Below are positions 44,092 to 62,803 of a stretch of DNA of 64,000 nucleotides, piece by piece (position 1 is the stretch's first letter; each line of letters starts with the position of its first letter). The notes under the pieces were generated by a model that worked only from the letters and a program-made list of their open reading frames with translations, was not told the DNA's origin and did not search any database. The position numbers were made by a program, and so were the translations under genes. Source of the stretch: an uncultured Acidimicrobiales bacterium. Lineage in GTDB: Bacteria; Actinomycetota; Acidimicrobiia; Acidimicrobiales; JANYDT01. The stretch spans positions 81,562 to 145,561 of the forward strand of contig CAVXNJ010000002.1 in assembly GCA_963763135.1 (NCBI GenBank), read 5' to 3'.

Positions 44092-44979
44092 ATGGCCAGA
44101 TTTGGTGAAGTTCTAACGGCAATGGTCACCCCCTTCGATGCGAACGGAGCGCTCGATCTCGACGCTGCTCAGGTCCTCGCCAAGTGGCTGGTCGACCGAG
44201 GCAACGACGGCCTGGTCGTGGCCGGGACCACGGGGGAATCGCCGACCCTGACCGACCAGGAGCAGCTCGACCTGGTGAAGGCGGTCTGCGAAGCGGTGAA
44301 CGTGCCGGTAATTGCAGGAGCGGGCTCAAACGACACGCCCCACGCAATCCATCTCACGAAGGCGATGGCCGGGCTCGGGGCCGCCGGCGTGCTCTCCGTG
44401 ACCCCGTATTACAACCGTCCGTCACAGGTTGGCATCGCCAACCACTTCCGGGCCGTCGCCGCAGCGACCGAGCTCCCCGTCATCCTCTACGACATTCCGG
44501 TCCGAACCGGTCGCAAGATCGAAAACGCCACGCTCTGGAAGCTGGCCAGTGAGGTTCCGAACATCGTCGCCGTCAAAGACGCGGCCAACGACGTCGCCTC
44601 CAGCGCCACCCTGATGGCTCACGCCCCGTCGGGTTTCGAGCTCATCAGCGGCAATGACAACCAGACCCTCCCGCTGATGGCGATCGGGTGCACCGCGGTC
44701 ATCGGCGTAGCCACCCACTGGTCGGGCATGGAGCACAAGGAAATGATCACGTCGTTCAAGAAGGGCGACGTTGACCACGCCCGCCGGGTCAACGCCCGCC
44801 TGCTCGAGTCCTACGTGTTCGAAGGGAGCGACCTCACCCCGAACCCGCAGCCGTCGAAAGCGATGATGCGCACCCTCGGACTGAAGGTCGGGCGTTGCCG
44901 TCCGCCGATGGACGGCGAGCCGAGCACTCTCGAAGACACCGCCCGATCCGTGTGGAGCAATCTTCAGGCGAGCGCATGA
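44092..44979 (+). CDS. dapA: 4-hydroxy-tetrahydrodipicolinate synthase
   Basis: Contains TAMVTPF, VVAGTTGESPTL and IVAVKDA (active-site Lys). Confidence 0.93.
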   Translation: MARFGEVLTAMVTPFDANGALDLDAAQVLAKWLVDRGNDGLVVAGTTGESPTLTDQEQLDLVKAVCEAVNVPVIAGAGSNDTPHAIHLTKAMAGLGAAGVLSVTPYYNRPSQVGIANHFRAVAAATELPVILYDIPVRTGRKIENATLWKLASEVPNIVAVKDAANDVASSATLMAHAPSGFELISGNDNQTLPLMAIGCTAVIGVATHWSGMEHKEMITSFKKGDVDHARRVNARLLESYVFEGSDLTPNPQPSKAMMRTLGLKVGRCRPPMDGEPSTLEDTARSVWSNLQASA

Positions 44980-46727
44980 CGCCGAGCGCCCGCAAAGGCG
45001 CTTCAAAGTCAACCGCAAACAAACCGACCACGGCCATGACCACGTCTCCCACTACGCCAAGTTCGCCCACTCCGCCCGTCCGCGTCATCTTCTTCGGCGG
45101 CCTTGGGGAGATCGGTCGTAACTGCTCGTGCATCGAGGTCGAAGGTCGGCTCATGCTGATCGACGTCGGCCTGATGTTCCCCGAAGACGACATGCCGGGC
45201 ATCGACCTCGTGCTGCCCGACTTCACGTTCCTGCGGGAGAACGCCGACCGCATCGAAGGCGCAATCCTCACGCACGGCCACGAAGATCACGTCGGCGCGC
45301 TCTCGTACCTGCTGCGCGACATCTCGTTCCCGCTCTTCGCCACACAGCTCACGCTGAACCTGGCCCGGGGTCGCATCGAAGAAGCCGGGCTGACGAGCCG
45401 CACGAGTTTCAACGTGATCCAAGACGGTGAACGTCGCCAGATCGGCCCGTTCGACGTCGAGTTCATTCCCGTCGCGCACTCCGTGCCCGACTCGATCGGC
45501 ATTGCGTTCCACACTCCGCAGGGCGTGATTTACCACACGGGCGACTTCAAGCTCGACCTCACGCCCATCGACGGCCGCACCACCGACCTCGCCCGCATCG
45601 GCGCAATCGGCAAGGACCCGGGCATCCGCCTGCTGCTGTCCGACTCCACCAACGCGGAGTCCGACGGCTACACCGAGTCGGAGAAGGTGATCGGCAAGAA
45701 CCTCTCGAACATCATCCGCGACAACACGGGCAAGCGGCTCATCGTCGGGTGTTTCGCCTCGCACATCCACCGCGTGCAACAGGTCATCGAAGCCGGCGTC
45801 GCGTCGGGCCGCAAGGTCACTACGCTCGGCCGGTCGATGCGTCGCAACATCCAGATCGCCCGGGAAATGGGCAAGCTGACGATCCGCGACGAAGACCTCT
45901 TCGACATCGAGAAGCTCGGTGATCACGATCCGAGCAAGGTGCTGATTCTGTCGACGGGTTCGCAGGGCGAGCCGATGTCGGCGCTCGCGCTGATGGCCGC
46001 CGGTGAGAACCGTTTCGTGAAGATCGGCCCCAACGACACCGTGCTGCTGTCGTCGCATGCGATTCCCGGAAACGAGACGAGCGTCGGCCGGGTCATCGAC
46101 GGCCTCACCCGCCTCGGCGCCGACGTGATCCACTCCGGCCTGGCCAAGGTTCACGTAAGTGGGCACGCCAAGCGGGAAGAGCTGAAGACGCTGCTGGCCG
46201 TCGCCAAGCCGAAGTACTTCATCCCGATCCACGGCGAGTACCGCCACCTCACCCACCACACGCGTCTTGCAATGGACATGGGTGTTCCGCCCGACCACAT
46301 CCTGCTGTGTGAAGACGGCGACAGCGTGGTGCTTACCGATGAAGGCATCGACTTCGGCGACACCGTTCCGGCCGGATTCCTTTATGTCGACGGCATCGTC
46401 GGCGACGTAGGCCAGGGCGTGCTTCGCGACCGCAAGGTGCTCTCCAACGAGGGTGTTGTGGTCGTGATCGTGACGGTCGACGAGCAGGGCGGCGAGATCG
46501 TCACCGGCCCCGAGATCATCACGCGTGGCTGGGTCTACGCCCCGGAGGCGGAGACGCTGCTCGGCGAGGCGCAGGAGGTCATTCGCAAGAAGCTCCTCGA
46601 CTCCATGTCCGACGGTGGACGAGACCTCGAATCGATGAAGCGCACCGTCCGCCAGGCCACCGGCAAATTCGTAAGTGAACGTACGAAGCGCCGCCCCATG
46701 ATCGTCCCGGTGATCATCGAGGTGTAG
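44976..46727 (+). CDS. rnj: ribonuclease J
   Basis: ATGA overlap with the dapA stop. Contains ILTHGHEDHVGAL (metallo-beta-lactamase motif), a beta-CASP region, and HVSGHAKREE. Confidence 0.92.
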   Translation: MTPSARKGASKSTANKPTTAMTTSPTTPSSPTPPVRVIFFGGLGEIGRNCSCIEVEGRLMLIDVGLMFPEDDMPGIDLVLPDFTFLRENADRIEGAILTHGHEDHVGALSYLLRDISFPLFATQLTLNLARGRIEEAGLTSRTSFNVIQDGERRQIGPFDVEFIPVAHSVPDSIGIAFHTPQGVIYHTGDFKLDLTPIDGRTTDLARIGAIGKDPGIRLLLSDSTNAESDGYTESEKVIGKNLSNIIRDNTGKRLIVGCFASHIHRVQQVIEAGVASGRKVTTLGRSMRRNIQIAREMGKLTIRDEDLFDIEKLGDHDPSKVLILSTGSQGEPMSALALMAAGENRFVKIGPNDTVLLSSHAIPGNETSVGRVIDGLTRLGADVIHSGLAKVHVSGHAKREELKTLLAVAKPKYFIPIHGEYRHLTHHTRLAMDMGVPPDHILLCEDGDSVVLTDEGIDFGDTVPAGFLYVDGIVGDVGQGVLRDRKVLSNEGVVVVIVTVDEQGGEIVTGPEIITRGWVYAPEAETLLGEAQEVIRKKLLDSMSDGGRDLESMKRTVRQATGKFVSERTKRRPMIVPVIIEV

Positions 46728-52070: not shown

Positions 52071-55000
52071 TCAGGGGGTGTATCGGCCGATGCGATTCGC
52101 TGACTGTTGGTTGAAGAGAATGTCGCCCGCGGCCACGATCAGGTCGGCCGTTCCCGAGATGTTCGCGTTGGCGGCCGACCCGGTCAGCAGTGGCAGCAGG
52201 CCCGGCTCGACCACGACACCCAACGTTCCCTTGTCGGCTCCGCTCATCCGGATGCGGAAGATGCGCGGTGCGGTCGTGTCGACGAAGACGATGTCACCCG
52301 ACGGTTCGTAGGCGACGCCGCCGACGTTTCGCAGTTCCGCGCTGTTGGCGAAGATGATCCCTTCACGTTTCGTTCCGCCGCCCGCGACCACCTCGACGCG
52401 GCCGTTCAACAGGTCGACGTGCAGCACGGTGTGATCGTTGGAGTCCTCGGCGATGGCCAGCTTGCCCGTAGGGCCTCCGAACACGTCAATGTCGATCGGG
52501 TTGTCGAGACGGTACTTCACCGCGCCGTCGTAGCCCTGAGGGTCAGACGGGTTTCCGAACACCGTACGTACTTCATTGTTGAGGACGTCGAGCACTCGAA
52601 CCCGCTTGTTTCCGGCGTCAAGTATGTAGACATTTCCGACATTGTCGGTGGCGAGAGCACGAATATCCTTGAACTCCGCCGTCAACGGTGCCCCGGGATC
52701 TGCAGCAAATCCGTTGCTGCCGGTACCGGCGACGGTCGTAATTATTCCGGTCGCGGCGTCAACTTTTCGGATTCGGTGGTTGCCGTTGTCGGCGATGTAG
52801 ATGTCGCCGTTCGGGGTACGTACTGAGGCGCTGGGTGAGTCGAGTTCGGCGTCCCTGGCCGGTCCGCCGTCGCCGGAGAACGCCTTGTTGCCGGTGCCGG
52901 CGACGAGTACCGCGGCGCCCGGGGTCACCATCTTCACCTGATGGGCCACGGGTGACGTCAGGTAGTAGTCGTTATTTCCCGGGCCGTTGGCGATGGTCTG
53001 GACATACAGGAGTCCATGGTTTGCGACCGGCCAAAGGCCGCCAATGAACGTCGAGTCCGTGGAGATCGTTCCGGCGGGCGCGGGTTGGGGTGTCGGGAAT
53101 CCTGCGGTTGGCGCTGGGCGCAGACCGATCCGAAGCGTTGACCAGTCGTTCGCGTCGAAGTATTCGACGATAAAGGTGTGGGGACCGGCCGTGAACGTTC
53201 GTTGGATGGCAAACGACCGAAGGTTGCTGGAAGTCCATGAATCGATGACCGGATCACCGTCTATCCAGACACGAATACCGTCGTCGGCGACCACTTCAAT
53301 ATCGGTCAATCCTGCTGCGAGGATGACGGTCGACTTGTAGCGGGCAGAGAAGTTGTCGGCGGAAACACCGGCGGCGGGTTGGCCGAGGTACCAGCGGTTG
53401 TTGACCATCGAGGTGCATGCCGTGCTCACGAGGCCGGCCGGGCTCAGGCTCGTGTTGTTGAAGTAGGTCGTCTCCCACTGGCCGTCGGAGCAACTCGCCG
53501 GGGCAACGGTGGTTGTCGTGGTGGTTGTGGTTGTTGTTGTTGTGATAGCCGTTGTTGTCGGGGTGGCGGTTGTGGTTGGCGCCACGGTCGTGGTGGTCGT
53601 ACCGGTCGTCGTGGTCGGCGCTACGGTCGTGGTGGTCGCTGCGGCAGTGGTGGTCGTTCCCGCGGGGAGAGTGGTGGTTGGAGCTGTTGTGGTTGGCGGC
53701 TGAGTTGTAGCAGGGGCCGCTGTTGTCGGTGCGACGGAACTACTCGTAGCAACCGTGGTCGGCGCGATCGGAATGGTGGGAGTGGGCGGGCTCGATGGTG
53801 CCTGAGTGTTGGCGCTCGCCGCCGGTGCACTGGTCGATGGCACGGTCGCCTCGGTTGTTGACGTTGACGTTGACGTTGACGTTGACGTTGACGTTGACGT
53901 TGAGGTGCTCGCTCGGGTGGTCGACGATGGCTTCGTCGTCGTCGTTGTCGTAGGTGCCTTCGGTTTCGCGGTGGTCGTGCTCGCTTTCGTCGCGGTGCCG
54001 GTCGACTCGAGTGGGGTGGGTTTGGGGGCGACGGGAGTGTTGCCCGAGGCACTGCTTCCGTCGATGGTCAGCGCCGCGTTAGGCGTCGCCGGAGCCTGGG
54101 GTGCGAGGGGCTCGCTCGATGAGGTGCCGGCGTCCGGTGAGGACGCATCGAAGGTGGGGGCCGCAAGCGCGTCGGAGGCCGCACCCGAAGGAGCTGGCGT
54201 CGGCGCGGATATGTTCGCAGAAGCGGGAGGAACTACCTCCACCGCCGGGCCATCCGGTGCCACGATCGCCGGTGCACCGGCGTCGGTCAGCGGTTGGCCG
54301 TTGCCGGCACGGTCGGTCGCGTCACCCACGGATTCGACGGACAGGATCGTGGTGGTGGTGACTGCGGCCGGAACGGTCAGCGCCAGCCGGTTCGGCACTG
54401 CCGAGTTGGTGGCCACCGGAGTAATCGCGGAGACCGCGCCGACCGCTACGGCGGTGGCCCCACTCAACGTCGCCGCCATCACATTGCTGATCTTCGCAGC
54501 GACGGCGCTTCCGCTTACGCCCAGGGTGGTGGAGCTTTCGATCACGGTCCTGGTGATGGTCGACAGCGGACCGTTGCCGGCTTGGAAATGGGTGATGAAG
54601 GACGAGAACGCTCCGGTCGCCACCCGCGATTTCTTCTCGCCGACCCGCAGCAGCGCCCGCACGACGAGAGGGTCGAAATGCGATCCCGAACAGCGAACCA
54701 GTTCGGCGCGGGCATCGTCCATCGTCATCGGCTTCTTGTACGAACGCGTTGCCGTCATCACTTCGAACGCATCGGCGACCGCGACGATCCGAGAGCCGAT
54801 CGACATCTGGTCACCGGTGAGGCCCAGGGGATAGCCGGTTCCATCCATGCGTTCGTGGTGTTCCCACGCGCAGTGGACCCATTCGCCGAGCCACTCCTCG
54901 ACGCCGGCCAACCGACTTCGCCCGGCGGCCGGATGCCCGCGAAGCGTCGCCCATTCCTCCTCGTTCGGCTTGCCCGCCTTGTTCAGAATCGCCGCCGGTA

Positions 55001-55583
55001 CGGCGAGCTTGCCGACATCGTGGAGCATGGCGCCCCACCGCAGACGCTCGCGGTCCTCCTCGGCCAGGTTCATTTCCTCCGCGATGACGTCAGCAAGGGC
55101 CCGGACCCGCTCGGAGTGGCCGCGGGTGCGTCGGTCGTGACGGTTGAGTTCGGCCACCAGCACGAGCACCTGCTCGGCCGCGGTCTGGGGATCCGACGAC
55201 AGACCGGTCCGTTTGAACGATTCGACGACCCGCTCGCGGTTGGTGGTGTTGCCCATCCGCAGGGCGAGCTTCACCCGGTTCGGCGCCGCTTCAGGGAATG
55301 CCAGGTTGGCCCTCGCCAGGGCCGACAGCGGTATGTAGCGCTCAAGCGCGCGGGACGTGTACTTCGCCAGGAAGCTGGCGACCACGAACGTCCCGAGGAA
55401 CCAGGCGCCCTTCAGCGGTAGCGACCACGACCGTGCGTAGAGAAGCTTGCCCAGGAGGCTGGTGAACAGCGCAGCGACAATGACCGGAGTGACCCACAGC
55501 AGGGCGCGAATGGCGCGAGACAGCCAGGGGCGAGGCTTCCACACCTTTCGGTTGGCATAGTTCTGCGGCGCGGGCGCTGACAC
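52071..55583 (-). CDS. membrane-anchored HD-GYP domain protein with a C-terminal Ser/Thr/Pro linker, a PA14 domain and NHL repeats
   Basis: 1170 aa, GTG start. Two N-terminal TM helices. HD-GYP domain (HSERV, MLHDVGK, HHERMDGTGYP). An Ala/Gly/Val-rich possible TM segment, then about 300 aa of low complexity. PA14-like region (WETTYFNN...FSARYKS...DDGIRVWIDGDPVIDSW...FIVEYFD). NHL-like repeats (GDIYIADNGNHRIRKVD and GNVYILDAGNKRVRVLD). Confidence 0.8.
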   Translation of the reverse strand: MSAPAPQNYANRKVWKPRPWLSRAIRALLWVTPVIVAALFTSLLGKLLYARSWSLPLKGAWFLGTFVVASFLAKYTSRALERYIPLSALARANLAFPEAAPNRVKLALRMGNTTNRERVVESFKRTGLSSDPQTAAEQVLVLVAELNRHDRRTRGHSERVRALADVIAEEMNLAEEDRERLRWGAMLHDVGKLAVPAAILNKAGKPNEEEWATLRGHPAAGRSRLAGVEEWLGEWVHCAWEHHERMDGTGYPLGLTGDQMSIGSRIVAVADAFEVMTATRSYKKPMTMDDARAELVRCSGSHFDPLVVRALLRVGEKKSRVATGAFSSFITHFQAGNGPLSTITRTVIESSTTLGVSGSAVAAKISNVMAATLSGATAVAVGAVSAITPVATNSAVPNRLALTVPAAVTTTTILSVESVGDATDRAGNGQPLTDAGAPAIVAPDGPAVEVVPPASANISAPTPAPSGAASDALAAPTFDASSPDAGTSSSEPLAPQAPATPNAALTIDGSSASGNTPVAPKPTPLESTGTATKASTTTAKPKAPTTTTTTKPSSTTRASTSTSTSTSTSTSTSTSTTEATVPSTSAPAASANTQAPSSPPTPTIPIAPTTVATSSSVAPTTAAPATTQPPTTTAPTTTLPAGTTTTAAATTTTVAPTTTTGTTTTTVAPTTTATPTTTAITTTTTTTTTTTTVAPASCSDGQWETTYFNNTSLSPAGLVSTACTSMVNNRWYLGQPAAGVSADNFSARYKSTVILAAGLTDIEVVADDGIRVWIDGDPVIDSWTSSNLRSFAIQRTFTAGPHTFIVEYFDANDWSTLRIGLRPAPTAGFPTPQPAPAGTISTDSTFIGGLWPVANHGLLYVQTIANGPGNNDYYLTSPVAHQVKMVTPGAAVLVAGTGNKAFSGDGGPARDAELDSPSASVRTPNGDIYIADNGNHRIRKVDAATGIITTVAGTGSNGFAADPGAPLTAEFKDIRALATDNVGNVYILDAGNKRVRVLDVLNNEVRTVFGNPSDPQGYDGAVKYRLDNPIDIDVFGGPTGKLAIAEDSNDHTVLHVDLLNGRVEVVAGGGTKREGIIFANSAELRNVGGVAYEPSGDIVFVDTTAPRIFRIRMSGADKGTLGVVVEPGLLPLLTGSAANANISGTADLIVAAGDILFNQQSANRIGRYTP
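53857..53898. repeat. hexanucleotide microsatellite (GTTGAC)x7 inside the HD-GYP gene linker
   Basis: Seven perfect units, encoding (ST)n on the minus strand. Adjacent poly-Thr tracts are encoded by GGT/TGT-rich DNA. Confidence 0.95.
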
Positions 55584-55913
55584 GTGACACGTTCTCCGTC
55601 CCCTTTATCGGCATACGCCCAAGCGAAGCGAAGCTACGGAGCGTGGCTTTTGGGGAATGCCCTCGAAATGAGACCGGTGGACTACCCGTAGCCATCTGCC
55701 GAAATAGCAGGTTGAGCGTTGACGTAGGAACGCGGCTCAGCGTTGAACCGCTGCTCAGAGTGGTTCTGCATCCGGGGCCAGCTTGTCTTGCACTTGTCCT
55801 ATCGACCGATAGGCTGGAGCAACCGTTTTCCCCGCTTCAGTTCCGATGGCCGCCGGCGAACCGCCCGTGTTCGCGTCTCCTATCGGAGCATCACACTCTT
55901 AAAGGAGCCTCCC

Positions 55914-59891: not shown

Positions 59892-61280
59892 CTACGGGCG
59901 CTCGAGTACGAGACCGACCCAGTTGCCATCCGTGGAGACGGCTGACAGTCGAAGGCCGTAGCGCTGGTAGGCGTCGACGACGGCGGCTCGTTGTTCCTCG
60001 ATGAGGCCGGCGAGAATCAGGTGGCCACCGGCTCGGACCCGTCCGCTGACGGGTTCGGCCAGCAAGATCAGCACCGGCGCCAAGATGTTGGCAACGACGA
60101 CGTCAAACGTTCCGGCGACGTCGGCAACCGGGCTGGTCGACGCGGTCAGCACCTCCCGACTGACCCCGTTGCGATCAGCGTTGGCCAATGTGTTGTCGAC
60201 CGCGGCCGCCTCGATGTCGACGGCGACCACGCTCGTCGCGCCCAATAGTGCTGCCGCGACGGCCAGGACGCCGCTTCCACATCCGACGTCGAGCACCGTG
60301 CGTCCCGCTTGCACCAGCGTCTCGAGGGCCGCCAGCGACAGGGCGGTCGTCGGATGGGCTCCGGTGCCAAAGGATCGGCCCGGGTCGATCACAAGCGGCT
60401 TCAAGCCCGAATCCGACCCCGGTCCCGACGCCTGGCCTGGGCCGAGATGGAGCGGGTCGAGATGGGGAGCCAGTGCGTCGTCGTCCCACCAACCGGGGAG
60501 GAGCAGGAACCCGCCAAGCTGCGTCGGCTCAAAGTGCTCACGCCACGCGTCGAGCCAGTCGTCGCCCAGGAGAACCTCGAAGCGGGGATTCCAGGCCGGA
60601 TCGAGCTCGGCCTCGGCGTCGGCGGCGGCCTCGTCGGAAGGAAACCCCGCCCGTAACGCGATCGTTCCTTCCGCCAGCGTCACCCGAGACCTGGGCCACG
60701 TGAGCTCCCCGACCGTGAGCTCCTCGATCCCGATGGTTCCGAGGTCGTACAGCTCGCTGCTCACCCACTCGAGATCGTCGGGCGAGATCGCAAGCTCAAC
60801 GACGGGAAAGCGGGCCGAGTCGGCCCCCGGGAGCTTGCGGACAACCCGAAAGGTTTCATAGGTCACGAGCGTGTCGTCGGTGATGGACCACGCGGGATCG
60901 TTGATATGTGTACGTATTTCTTCGGTGAACTGTGACCAGAACCGTTCGTGTCCTTCCCGCCAGTGCTCGACCGACATGAACGACTCACCTTCGGACTTCG
61001 CCTGTTCCCAGGTCACTTCGCTGATGGGCAGAACCGAAACCGTCAACGACTCCACCAACGCGATCGGCGCCCCGTTGGTACTGCGCATCACGAACACCGT
61101 ACCGGGCGATGGCGCGTCCTCGGGGTACATCTCGTTCAGCACGACGAGCGACATCGTGCCGGTCTTGCGCCCGGTCAGGGCGAGGCCGTTGAGTCGTTCC
61201 CGAAGCGGTCCGGGAGTTGCGAACTCCCAGTTGGGATAGGCGGAAAGCGCCTCGGAGGAAAGTAGTGGTTCGGTGGCCAA
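59892..61280 (-). CDS. prmA: ASCH-domain / ribosomal protein L11 methyltransferase fusion protein
   Basis: The N-terminal ~150 aa are YhfF-like ASCH (LALTGRKTGTMSL...EGESFMSVEHWREGHERFW). A complete PrmA follows (FEPTQLGGFLLLPGWW, DPGRSFGTGAHPTT, VLDVGCGSGVLAVAA). Confidence 0.75.
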   Translation of the reverse strand: MATEPLLSSEALSAYPNWEFATPGPLRERLNGLALTGRKTGTMSLVVLNEMYPEDAPSPGTVFVMRSTNGAPIALVESLTVSVLPISEVTWEQAKSEGESFMSVEHWREGHERFWSQFTEEIRTHINDPAWSITDDTLVTYETFRVVRKLPGADSARFPVVELAISPDDLEWVSSELYDLGTIGIEELTVGELTWPRSRVTLAEGTIALRAGFPSDEAAADAEAELDPAWNPRFEVLLGDDWLDAWREHFEPTQLGGFLLLPGWWDDDALAPHLDPLHLGPGQASGPGSDSGLKPLVIDPGRSFGTGAHPTTALSLAALETLVQAGRTVLDVGCGSGVLAVAAALLGATSVVAVDIEAAAVDNTLANADRNGVSREVLTASTSPVADVAGTFDVVVANILAPVLILLAEPVSGRVRAGGHLILAGLIEEQRAAVVDAYQRYGLRLSAVSTDGNWVGLVLERP

Positions 61281-61309: not shown

Positions 61310-62803
61310 CTAGGCCGGTACCGGGCGACCGACGTAGGCGACAAGTTCTTCGAGGGGTGATCCCGGGCGGCCGAGAGCAACCGGTTCGTCGAACATGCCC
61401 GGACCGCGACGCGGTGGCACGTACTCCTCGGCGAACGAGCGCACCCGCTCGATGATCTTCGGGTCGATGTCAAAGCCTCGGCCGAGGGACTGCGCGAGGT
61501 CCCAGGCGTGTACGACATCGTCGCCGATGAACATCTCGGCGAGGTAGGAACCGGTACAGGAACCCCACGGCATGTTGATCGATCGTTCGAGAAGGCCGGC
61601 GTCGTCTCGGAACAACGTCGCCATCTCATCGACGGCGTCGCGATGCGCCTTCACCGGATCATCGCCCAGGTGGTTGCCGTAGAACTCGGGACCGATCTCA
61701 CGTCCGGTCAAACCATAAGTGACCATATGAATACCGCCAACTATGTGGTTGACGAGGGCCCGGACATCCCACGCTTCGCACGGGGTGGGCTTGGTCCACT
61801 CGTCGGGCTGGATCTGAGCGATCTGGTCGTGAAGCTGATCGCTCAGCACGAGAAGATCGACCAGTGGCTGCACCGAACCCGGGGCGAGCGGCGGTAGACG
61901 GCGAGCGTGGGCCTCGGCGGCGGTGAAGTAGACCATCCCTGCTCCCCAGTTGTGGGCCACCGTGCCGGGTGGAACCGCATGGTGGTCAGCGGCGTTGGCG
62001 CCGCACAGGAATGCCAGCTCGGTCGACGTGAGGACACCCCATTCGGCGAACGCCTCCGCTGGAGTCGGGTCGGGGCACGCGTCGGCGGTCGAGCCGGGGC
62101 TTACCGTCTCGAGCGCGTCGAGGTACGCGGCGAACGGCATCCAGCCGGGGACGGTCACCTCGCCGTTCGTGCCGCGGAAGATGAGGGTTGGGAACGCGTA
62201 ACGGTCGTGTCCCTCGGAGTGCTTCAAATTACCTATGCCCACATAGTTTCCTTCGAGGAAGCGGACATGGTCATTCGGTCGCCGGGTCTCCTCCCAGTCG
62301 GCCTGATACGCAGCGGCGACGGAAGGATCCGACAGGTCGGCCACGAAGCGCTCGACGTCGAGGCCGGGGACACCCTCCACGGCGGCGACGAACTCATCCG
62401 CGGTGTAGGGCGTGATGCCGAAGACAAACGTCGATTCGCGCAGCCGACGCAATACCCGGGCGGCGACTTCCGGCCCCTGGCGAAGTGCCGCGTGGACAGC
62501 GCGTCCGGCGGGGTCGGTGGAGCGTGCCATCCGACGCATGGGAACCGGGTAGGGCTGTCCGGTGTAGCGGTTGGTCTGTCGCCAGTAGGCCTGCATGGGC
62601 TTGGCCGCCAGAGCCGGATCCCAGTCGGGACGACCGTTCGTGGCGTCGCCGATGAGGCCACCCATCACCGTTCGCCATGCCATTCGGTGCCCGTGCCTCC
62701 ACCGCAGGAGTCGAAGTTTGGGCTCCGTGCCCCACGCCCAGGAGCAGATCGGGTCGGTGTACTCCGTGACGGAAACGGAAGCTTCGTTGGGCAGCGCGGA
62801 CAT
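61310..62803 (-). CDS. DsbA-like thioredoxin-fold domain fused to a DinB/MDMPI-like (TIGR03086-type) domain
   Basis: The N-terminus YTDPICSWAWG is a DsbA-family-like CxxW site. The C-terminal ~190 aa (WTKPTPCEAWDVRALVNHIVGG...HAWDLAQSLG) resemble a mycothiol-dependent-type DinB fold. Confidence 0.6.
   Translation of the reverse strand: MSALPNEASVSVTEYTDPICSWAWGTEPKLRLLRWRHGHRMAWRTVMGGLIGDATNGRPDWDPALAAKPMQAYWRQTNRYTGQPYPVPMRRMARSTDPAGRAVHAALRQGPEVAARVLRRLRESTFVFGITPYTADEFVAAVEGVPGLDVERFVADLSDPSVAAAYQADWEETRRPNDHVRFLEGNYVGIGNLKHSEGHDRYAFPTLIFRGTNGEVTVPGWMPFAAYLDALETVSPGSTADACPDPTPAEAFAEWGVLTSTELAFLCGANAADHHAVPPGTVAHNWGAGMVYFTAAEAHARRLPPLAPGSVQPLVDLLVLSDQLHDQIAQIQPDEWTKPTPCEAWDVRALVNHIVGGIHMVTYGLTGREIGPEFYGNHLGDDPVKAHRDAVDEMATLFRDDAGLLERSINMPWGSCTGSYLAEMFIGDDVVHAWDLAQSLGRGFDIDPKIIERVRSFAEEYVPPRRGPGMFDEPVALGRPGSPLEELVAYVGRPVPA

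Follow-up and report, generated by a model that had tools for sequence, protein, structure and literature searches.

The locus examined here raises the question of how an enzyme of intracellular cyclic-dinucleotide turnover may be connected to a presumed sensor module located behind it in the polypeptide chain and on the other side of the membrane. Within a 64,000-nucleotide (nt) stretch of DNA from an uncultured Acidimicrobiales bacterium (contig CAVXNJ010000002.1, positions 81,562 to 145,561; hereafter the window), the minus-strand gene at 52071..55583 encodes a protein of 1170 amino acids (aa) in which an HD-GYP phosphodiesterase domain is followed by a long low-complexity stalk, a PA14 domain and an NHL beta-propeller. 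A three-pass receptor phosphodiesterase featuring a cytoplasmic HD-GYP domain, surface-located PA14 and NHL domains and signalling from the outside to the inside is proposed for this gene, and a probability of roughly 55% is assigned to this model as a whole.

The coding sequence (52071..55583, minus strand), deduced from the list of open reading frames (ORFs) and the corresponding translation, is complete and unbroken, and full-length homologues of the same architecture were found. It begins with a GTG start codon, 10 nt upstream of which a probable Shine-Dalgarno sequence, GGAG (55594..55597, minus strand), was read from the sequence. The G+C content at third codon positions (0.77) is typical of the other genes in the window, which has an overall G+C content of 65%. 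Since five independent database proteins share the combination of HD_5, PA14 and NHL, an artefact of gene fusion, assembly or frameshift was ruled out, and the locus represents a real gene of an Acidimicrobiia-type actinobacterium. Two plus-strand ORFs overlapping the gene (53806-54834 and 54294-55421) were dismissed as shadows of the minus-strand gene. No sigma-70-type match was found in its promoter region, and no promoter or terminator signals above chance bearing on the gene were recorded; tRNA genes and Rfam families at the gathering threshold were likewise absent from the 64 kb (window 1-64000). All elements listed in the original prediction, namely two transmembrane (TM) helices, an HD-GYP domain containing the motif HHERMDGTGYP, a segment rich in Ala, Gly and Val, about 300 aa of Ser/Thr/Pro/Ala low complexity, a PA14 domain and NHL repeats, were recovered between 52071 and 55583 in exactly the order given. 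The status of the Ala/Gly/Val-rich segment as a third TM helix is addressed separately below.

The catalytic domain (aa 142-306; 54666..55160, minus strand) was identified by a match to Pfam HD_5 (PF13487) featuring an E-value (E) of 3.9e-37 and a score of 128.1 bits versus a cut-off of 27.2 (Pfam matches were counted against the curated gathering cut-offs), with positions 3-169 of the 170 profile positions being covered. The top NCBIfam match of the protein is a model for phosphodiesterases of cyclic di-GMP (c-di-GMP), scoring below its full-length threshold. The motif HHERMDGTGYP is located at aa 242-252 (window 54828-54860). Among 58 aligned relatives, the metal ligands H156, H188-D189, H217, H242-H243 and D271 as well as G248, G250, Y251 and P252 are invariant, and E244 and D247 of the HHExxDGxGYP signature are also present and invariant or nearly so. 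Furthermore, the ligands of the query align with the metal ligands of the solved enzymes PmGH (4mcw), PA4781 (4r8z) and V-cGAP3 (5z7c). The predicted fold agrees with this assignment: AlphaFold values of the predicted local distance difference test (pLDDT) range from 90 to 98 across the domain, and the top Foldseek matches in the PDB obtained with the model of aa 1-430 were PA4781, PmGH (4mcw) and DvhD with a probability of 1.00, Bd1817 also being among the best. In PmGH, a third metal is supplied by a Glu residue. This ligand, located four residues before the first His in the PmGH subgroup, is absent from the query, which reads D-R-R-T-R-G-H versus D-P-E-T-Q-N-H in PmGH and thus carries Arg at the respective position (family consensus HDRxTRGH). 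The replacement points to a metal site of the binuclear type. As judged from the retention of all ligands and of the GYP signature, the HD-GYP domain is predicted to be catalytically intact and of this binuclear type.

Regarding the membrane-associated parts of the protein, hydrophobic segments according to Kyte-Doolittle (KD) were found at about aa 21-52 (2.06), 55-73 (1.51) and 368-391 (1.66). The first two correspond to TM1 (aa 21-48; 55440..55523, minus strand) and TM2 (aa 55-75; 55359..55421, minus strand), for which AlphaFold predicts helices at aa 19-48 and 55-91, both above pLDDT 90; TM2 is thus prolonged as a long helix up to aa 91. TM1 is preceded by a basic N-terminus (six Lys/Arg residues in aa 1-30), and the two helices are connected by a loop of approximately six residues and are adjacent in all relatives. 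Based on the basic N-terminus and the short loop, and as far as sequence and structural model can tell, the HD-GYP domain must be cytoplasmic and an N-terminal ectodomain must be absent. Between TM2 and the HD-GYP domain, a conserved cytoplasmic juxtamembrane region (aa 76-141; 55161..55358, minus strand) was recognised by invariant columns of the family alignment, among them P85, F96-P97, A100-P101 and R103. No Pfam model matches aa 76-141, and it is possible that this region serves as a family-specific signal-relay element.

The candidate TM3 (aa 365-391; 54411..54491, minus strand; KD 1.66) is an Ala/Gly/Val/Thr-rich segment of 27 aa containing no charged residue and residing at a conserved position within the family. 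Its flanks are asymmetric: aa 307-364 carry a net charge of +5 (seven Lys/Arg, two Asp/Glu), and the region behind the segment is mostly acidic. At the level of the family, 209 relatives were evaluated. Their most hydrophobic window behind the HD-GYP domain is located 107 aa (median; 10-90%: 98-122) beyond the HHE motif, and its median KD value is 1.69 compared to 1.09 for a control inside the HD-GYP domain; values of at least 1.4 were reached by 96% of these segments versus 9% of the controls. In 97% of the relatives, 20 or more consecutive residues are uncharged, and the net charge of the 30-aa flanks, +1.3 before and -2.0 after the segment, fits the positive-inside rule. On an approximate translocon scale (values of Hessa et al.), the query's TM3 scores about +2.8 kcal/mol, i.e., between TM1 (+0.9) and TM2 (+4.6), whereas controls from the HD-GYP domain, the linker and the propeller score +6.6 to +9.5 kcal/mol. 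On the same scale, the family median of the segment is 3.2 kcal/mol, and medians of 9.3-10 were obtained for the HD-GYP domain and for the 130 aa of linker that follow; the difference between the segment (3.2) and this linker (9.3) therefore marks a positional feature and not an effect of composition.

Moreover, a motif of the form P-x-x-[LIV]-A-[LF] follows TM3, represented in the query by P397-N-R-L-A-L402 (54378..54395, minus strand). Of 193 relatives, 91 contain it in the first 50 aa behind TM3 and 12 in the 50 aa following these; it occurs about 14 residues behind the segment and is often followed by acidic residues. The motif may serve as a docking strand or mark a site of cleavage.

Taken together, the conserved segment with its positive-inside flanks, the extracellular-type domains of the family, the signal-like N-termini of propeller homologues (95 of 120 homologues devoid of an HD-GYP domain begin with a signal-peptide-like hydrophobic stretch) and the relationship to RsgI3 and PknD make it probable that the C-terminus, consisting of stalk, PA14 and NHL domains, is extracytoplasmic, as the original prediction had supposed. 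Because TM3 of the query itself is marginal and was not confidently modelled as a helix, this topology is a predicted one. The assumption that the Ala/Gly/Val-rich segment forms a third TM helix is accordingly backed by family conservation and charge asymmetry, the query copy being marginally hydrophobic and absent as a confident helix from the structural model.

The segment following TM3 (aa 392-692; 53508..54410, minus strand), defined by its composition as a stalk, comprises 301 aa with a Ser/Thr/Pro/Ala content of 75%. The (ST)n run within it corresponds to a perfect repeat of the hexanucleotide GTTGAC (x7.8, 53857-53903), at which in-frame slippage could vary the length of the stalk, and imperfect repeats of 18, 21 and 39 nt are located at 53565-53656. 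A local peak in GC skew results from the Ser/Thr-encoding stalk repeat. An LPxTG sortase signal was not found in the protein.

The PA14 beta-sandwich (aa 701-823; 53115..53483, minus strand) is supported by a match to Pfam PA14 (PF07691; aa 701-819, E 1.3e-10, 41.7 bits versus a cut-off of 24) and by the strands of the AlphaFold model. It contains the conserved DDG motif and the residues Cys698 and Cys723. Among solved structures, the PDB sequence search placed the extracellular PA14 dyad of RsgI3 (6qe7, E 2.3e-11) closest to it, with DDGVRLWVDG of RsgI3 aligning with ADDGIRVWIDG of the query. The domain would be of the Ca2+/glycan-binding type. The six-bladed NHL beta-propeller (aa 839-1170; 52074..53069, minus strand) was matched by Pfam NHL (PF01436; E 8e-9, 35.6 bits versus 20) and by TEN_NHL (PF25021; E 1e-9, 38.4 bits versus 27.1). 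Accordingly, both the PA14 and the NHL assignments hold in the profile search, and AlphaFold and Foldseek agree with them. In the model of aa 690-1170 (pLDDT 88.4, predicted TM-score 0.82), a short Pro-rich stretch joins the beta-sandwich (aa 703-823) to the propeller, for which 24 strands arranged in six four-stranded blades were predicted with pLDDT values mostly above 90. Foldseek returned 295 matches for the propeller at E <= 1e-3. They include teneurins and a teneurin-like protein of bacterial origin, NHLRC2, the NHL domain of SOQ1, which is lumenal, and the Pizza6 designs, which derive from PknD and match with target-normalised TM-scores of up to 0.87.

To determine how widespread this architecture is, databases were surveyed for related proteins, as suggested along with the original prediction. 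A word-indexed search yielded 779 relatives. Five proteins from JGI, ENA and NCBI (P0001, P0004, P0005, P0006 and P0008; 1045-1133 aa) combine HD_5, PA14 and NHL, nine relatives possess PA14 only and two NHL only. Most of the others share the same N-terminal module but carry different C-terminal domains, namely pentapeptide repeats, Big_9/cadherin-like, FG-GAP/VCBS, fn3, LTD, Big_3_5, PKD, CBM_2, Calx-beta or SdrD_B domains. These extra domains always follow the hydrophobic segment, and in all ten relatives checked for domain names and positions the extra domain lies well beyond the HD-GYP domain. Exported proteins typically contain linkers rich in Thr and Pro and domains such as CBM_2, cadherin-like, FG-GAP, PKD, Calx-beta and SdrD_B. 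Furthermore, an exhaustive phmmer search applying aa 1-345 against 1.84 billion representatives clustered at 50% identity returned 6312 matches at E <= 1e-30; the family is therefore large. Among the best 150 of these 6312 matches (the 150th scoring 283 bits), nearly the whole module including the TM hairpin was aligned, and almost all continue beyond it at the C-terminus for hundreds to over 2000 residues. The gene is thus one member of a large family with a constant enzyme head and swapped outer domains, and not a one-off. Family members for which a source name is available all originate from Acidimicrobiales, Ilumatobacteraceae or Actinomycetota metagenome-assembled genomes, and their annotations are generic ('HD-GYP domain-containing protein', 'Ig-like domain-containing protein'). 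A search of genome contigs with aa 1-430 returned distant proteobacterial HD-GYP loci only and no close relatives. These datasets directly show that the gene is intact, which domains and folds it encodes, that its catalytic residues are conserved and that a hydrophobic segment recurs throughout the family ahead of exchanged C-terminal domains.

Beyond this, we infer as follows how the chain is arranged in the membrane, what it binds and hydrolyses, and in which direction and by which mechanism the two are coupled. In its host, a monoderm and Acidimicrobiia-like actinobacterium, the protein would keep its basic N-terminus in the cytoplasm and be anchored by the tight TM1-TM2 hairpin. The cytoplasmic HD-GYP domain would be held at the membrane by both of its ends, and the weakly hydrophobic TM3 is assumed to take the chain out of the cell again. 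The Ser/Thr/Pro-rich stalk of about 300 aa would then cross the cell wall and expose the PA14 domain and the six-bladed NHL propeller on the cell surface. A bound polysaccharide or surface ligand, or alternatively load on the stalk, may shift TM3 against the TM1/TM2 hairpin and the juxtamembrane helix; the long helix of TM2 runs into the juxtamembrane region with its invariant residues, which is in turn followed by the HD-GYP domain. Such a shift of TM3 would alter HD-GYP activity and, hence, the cellular level of c-di-GMP or a related cyclic dinucleotide. Outside-in signalling was proposed because of the analogy with the layouts of RsgI and PknD. A sensing function of the PA14/NHL module is plausible.

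Several observations weigh against this model. The KD value of the query's TM3 (1.66) is just above the classical threshold of 1.6, and its value on the translocon scale is positive; AlphaFold, applied to aa 1-430 on the basis of a 58-sequence alignment (mean pLDDT 78.5), leaves aa 371-426 non-helical and below pLDDT 50; the closest PA14/NHL relatives (P0005, P0006 and P0008) carry lysines in the equivalent segment; and pentapeptide repeats, which are not specifically extracellular, occur in 16 of the 120 listed relatives. These points would suit a protein with a two-helix anchor only, in which the Ala/Gly/Val-rich segment acts as a flexible or amphipathic linker and the PA14 and NHL domains recognise a ligand or protein inside the cell. 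Cytoplasmic proteins, too, can contain NHL propellers or pentapeptide repeats, and the NHL domains of TRIM and Brat were among the structural matches. A C-terminus residing entirely in the cytoplasm is nevertheless regarded as the least probable of the alternatives considered: uncharged hydrophobic segments at the respective position characterise about 96% of the 209 relatives, their charge asymmetry fits insertion from the inside to the outside, the adjacent linker is far less hydrophobic by the same measure, the domains and Thr/Pro-rich linkers of the family are typical of export, and the homologous propellers mostly belong to signal-peptide proteins. Further points against the model concern the substrate. 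The lack of the third-metal Glu resembles PA4781, which is said to possess low c-di-GMP activity, no GGDEF gene was detected in the 64-kb window by a motif search for GGDEF and HD-GYP, and V-cGAP3 (specific for cyclic GMP-AMP, cGAMP) and PmGH (c-di-GMP) match the HD-GYP domain about equally well. Hence, a receptor-type phosphodiesterase of the same topology might act on 3'3'-cGAMP, pGpG or another nucleotide. V-cGAP3 was the best match in the PDB sequence search (E 2.4e-35, marginally ahead of PmGH), and the Arg residue replacing the third-metal Glu is shared with binuclear HD-GYP enzymes. This variant is considered unlikely, though somewhat less so than a cytoplasmic C-terminus: the Pfam, NCBIfam and structure matches mostly represent c-di-GMP phosphodiesterases, no CD-NTase gene was seen, the motif search of the window being limited to GGDEF and HD-GYP, and a GGDEF gene is located approximately 4 kb downstream of the homologue P0010 in a related genome, where c-di-GMP synthesis is thus present.

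The direction of signalling may also be reversed. In that case, the PA14-NHL part would represent an adhesin or binding protein, and the HD-GYP domain would mainly serve as cytoplasmic nucleotide sensor and anchor controlling display, conformation or shedding of the ectodomain in a LapD-like manner, possibly by cleavage at the PxxLA(L/F) motif. The long Ser/Thr/Pro-rich stalk in combination with cadherin-like, SdrD_B, fn3 and PA14 domains indeed resembles Gram-positive surface proteins, a conserved juxtamembrane motif follows TM3, and the PA14 domain weakly matches 6m8m, an adhesin of the Lap type (E 0.0026). However, invariant metal ligands and GYP residues across the family are expected of an enzyme rather than of a degenerate receptor, and neither a conserved protease or partner gene in the vicinity nor a sortase signal was found. 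An inside-out device ranks first among the alternatives, while still being improbable. The genomic context favours neither the outside-in receptor model nor any of the alternatives, since no conserved partner gene pointing to a pathway was found at the query locus or around P0010 and P0005. A conserved gene neighbourhood was dismissed, as P0010 and P0005 reside in unrelated contexts and the neighbours in the window are house-keeping genes.

These neighbours comprise dapA, rnj, ftsK, an acyl-CoA synthetase gene, icd, rsgA and prmA. The core genes pnp, dapB, dapA, rnj and ftsK are present in the window, and the order pnp-dapB...dapA-rnj-ftsK corresponds to the usual actinobacterial core arrangement. 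Named homologues place the window in an organism of this kind, as its RNase J shares 67-68% identity with proteins that bear the name Acidimicrobiales. The RNase J ORF (44895-46727, plus strand; 610 aa as listed) overlaps the end of dapA (44092-44979); the database RNase J identical to it at 100% (P0358) comprises 583 aa, and the true start is therefore probably located about 27 codons downstream of the listed one. Two further minus-strand genes encode combined domains: the product of 59892-61280 is a PrmA-type methyltransferase (aa 297-461) with an N-terminal ASCH domain (aa 29-147), a combination that looks unusual, and 61310-62803 encodes a 497-aa protein with DsbA/thioredoxin-like and MDMPI_N (mycothiol-dependent isomerase/DinB-like) domains. 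At the loci of the homologues, an AbiEii/AbiEi toxin-antitoxin pair (L001 5456-7220, minus strand) is located directly upstream of the HD-GYP-PA14 homologue P0010. Near P0005, a 1085-aa surface protein composed of SdrD_B/CarboxypepD_reg repeats is encoded two genes downstream, after ClpB (L003 14050-17307, plus strand); SdrD_B is also fused to the HD-GYP head as an ectodomain in P0016.

Concerning novelty, no description of an HD-GYP protein with C-terminal PA14/NHL domains or a C-terminal extracytoplasmic sensor was found in the open-access literature searched, in which the term 'PA14' is swamped by the P. aeruginosa strain name. The architecture, called unusual in the original prediction, is thus undescribed in that literature but not rare in nature, being one variant of a large family. 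What is new is the arrangement together with the size and modularity of the family, and not a fold or a chemistry. It is tentatively suggested, as a possibility ranking below the receptor model itself, that these proteins constitute a hitherto undescribed class of 'reverse-topology' one-component receptors for cyclic dinucleotides, seemingly concentrated in Acidimicrobiia, in which a constant module (TM hairpin, HD-GYP, TM3 and PxxLA(L/F)) reads varied surface or polysaccharide cues by means of exchangeable ectodomains. Such receptors would be the c-di-GMP counterpart of the RsgI and PknD receptors, and the PxxLA(L/F) motif might then be a regulated cleavage or docking site gating the enzyme. 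If the topology is true, the family shows that an HD-GYP enzyme can be connected in the way of a eukaryote-type receptor kinase, its sensor lying outside the cell and downstream of the enzyme, and the abundant but little-cultured Acidimicrobiia gain a modular link between glycan or surface contact and second-messenger turnover. Moreover, the ectodomains exchanged within the family, among them CBM_2, PA14, cadherin-like and fn3 domains, provide a list of candidate signals, and the constant head offers a compact system to study how a C-terminal TM helix regulates an HD-GYP active site.

Comparison with known systems places the catalytic part of the protein among the HD-GYP phosphodiesterases of the RpfG type. 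PmGH (4mcw), PA4781 (4r8z), DvhD (9rbz) and V-cGAP3 (5z7c) possess the same catalytic domain at 27-33% identity (Foldseek), the E-values obtained for solved HD-GYP proteins by sequence search range from 1e-21 to 1e-35, and the HD residues, the HHExxDGxGYP motif and the binuclear ligands are common to these enzymes and the query, which differs from PmGH in lacking the third-metal Glu. According to a census by Galperin, most HD-GYP domains reside in soluble proteins (PMC1183210). In a review of sensory inputs to c-di-GMP signalling published in 2022, sensors are N-terminal and either periplasmic or cytoplasmic, and NHL and PA14 domains, beta-propellers and Actinobacteria are not mentioned in the main text (PMC8846402). 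Known HD-GYP proteins carry REC, PAS, GAF, hemerythrin or periplasmic domains at the N-terminus, whereas only a TM hairpin is located there in the query, the presumed sensor being placed C-terminally past the third TM segment.

The closest parallels to this layout were found outside the HD-GYP family. RsgI is a membrane-associated anti-sigma factor whose extracellular polysaccharide-sensing module is swapped between paralogues, PA14 being one of these modules, and the PA14 dyads of RsgI bind pectin or xylan (PMC6852018). RsgI3 of Clostridium thermocellum (6qe7) shows the same succession of effector, TM helix and exchangeable extracellular module as proposed for the query, and its PA14 domain is the closest sequence relative in the PDB, with the DDG motif being kept. 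CBM3 and glycoside hydrolase (GH) modules also occur in RsgI paralogues. In contrast to RsgI, which features an RsgI_N domain and a cognate sigI, the query has no Pfam match to RsgI_N and no sigma-factor gene among its ten neighbours, and its output is an enzyme instead of the release of a sigma factor. RsgI signals by autoproteolysis and RseP cleavage (PMC10328401; PMC12203970); no evidence for either step of this type was found in the query.

The second parallel is PknD, in which a kinase, a TM helix and extracellular C-terminal NHL repeats follow each other (PMC1262709). In PknD of Mycobacterium tuberculosis (1rwi/1rwl), as in the layout proposed for the query, an N-terminal cytoplasmic catalytic domain is linked by a TM helix to a C-terminal six-bladed NHL propeller, and the query propeller matches the PknD sensor 1rwi with E 2.3e-5 in the sequence search. 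The query differs by its HD-GYP domain in place of a kinase (no Pkinase match), two extra N-terminal TM helices, the added PA14 domain and a far longer stalk. LapD, by comparison, is a membrane protein through which c-di-GMP in the cytoplasm is linked to processes on the cell surface; its GGDEF-EAL domains are degenerate, and its periplasmic domain captures a protease. Whereas the nucleotide domains of LapD are degenerate, the query keeps all catalytic residues, and no partner protease was seen among its neighbours. The best propeller matches were obtained for the NHL domains of teneurins and bacterial teneurin-like proteins (9ifo, 6fb3; Foldseek E 4.8e-25, phmmer E 1.2e-50). A YD shell or toxin cassette does not occur in the query, and the propeller alone is common to both. 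In its proposed layout, the protein resembles RsgI and PknD and is a member of neither family.

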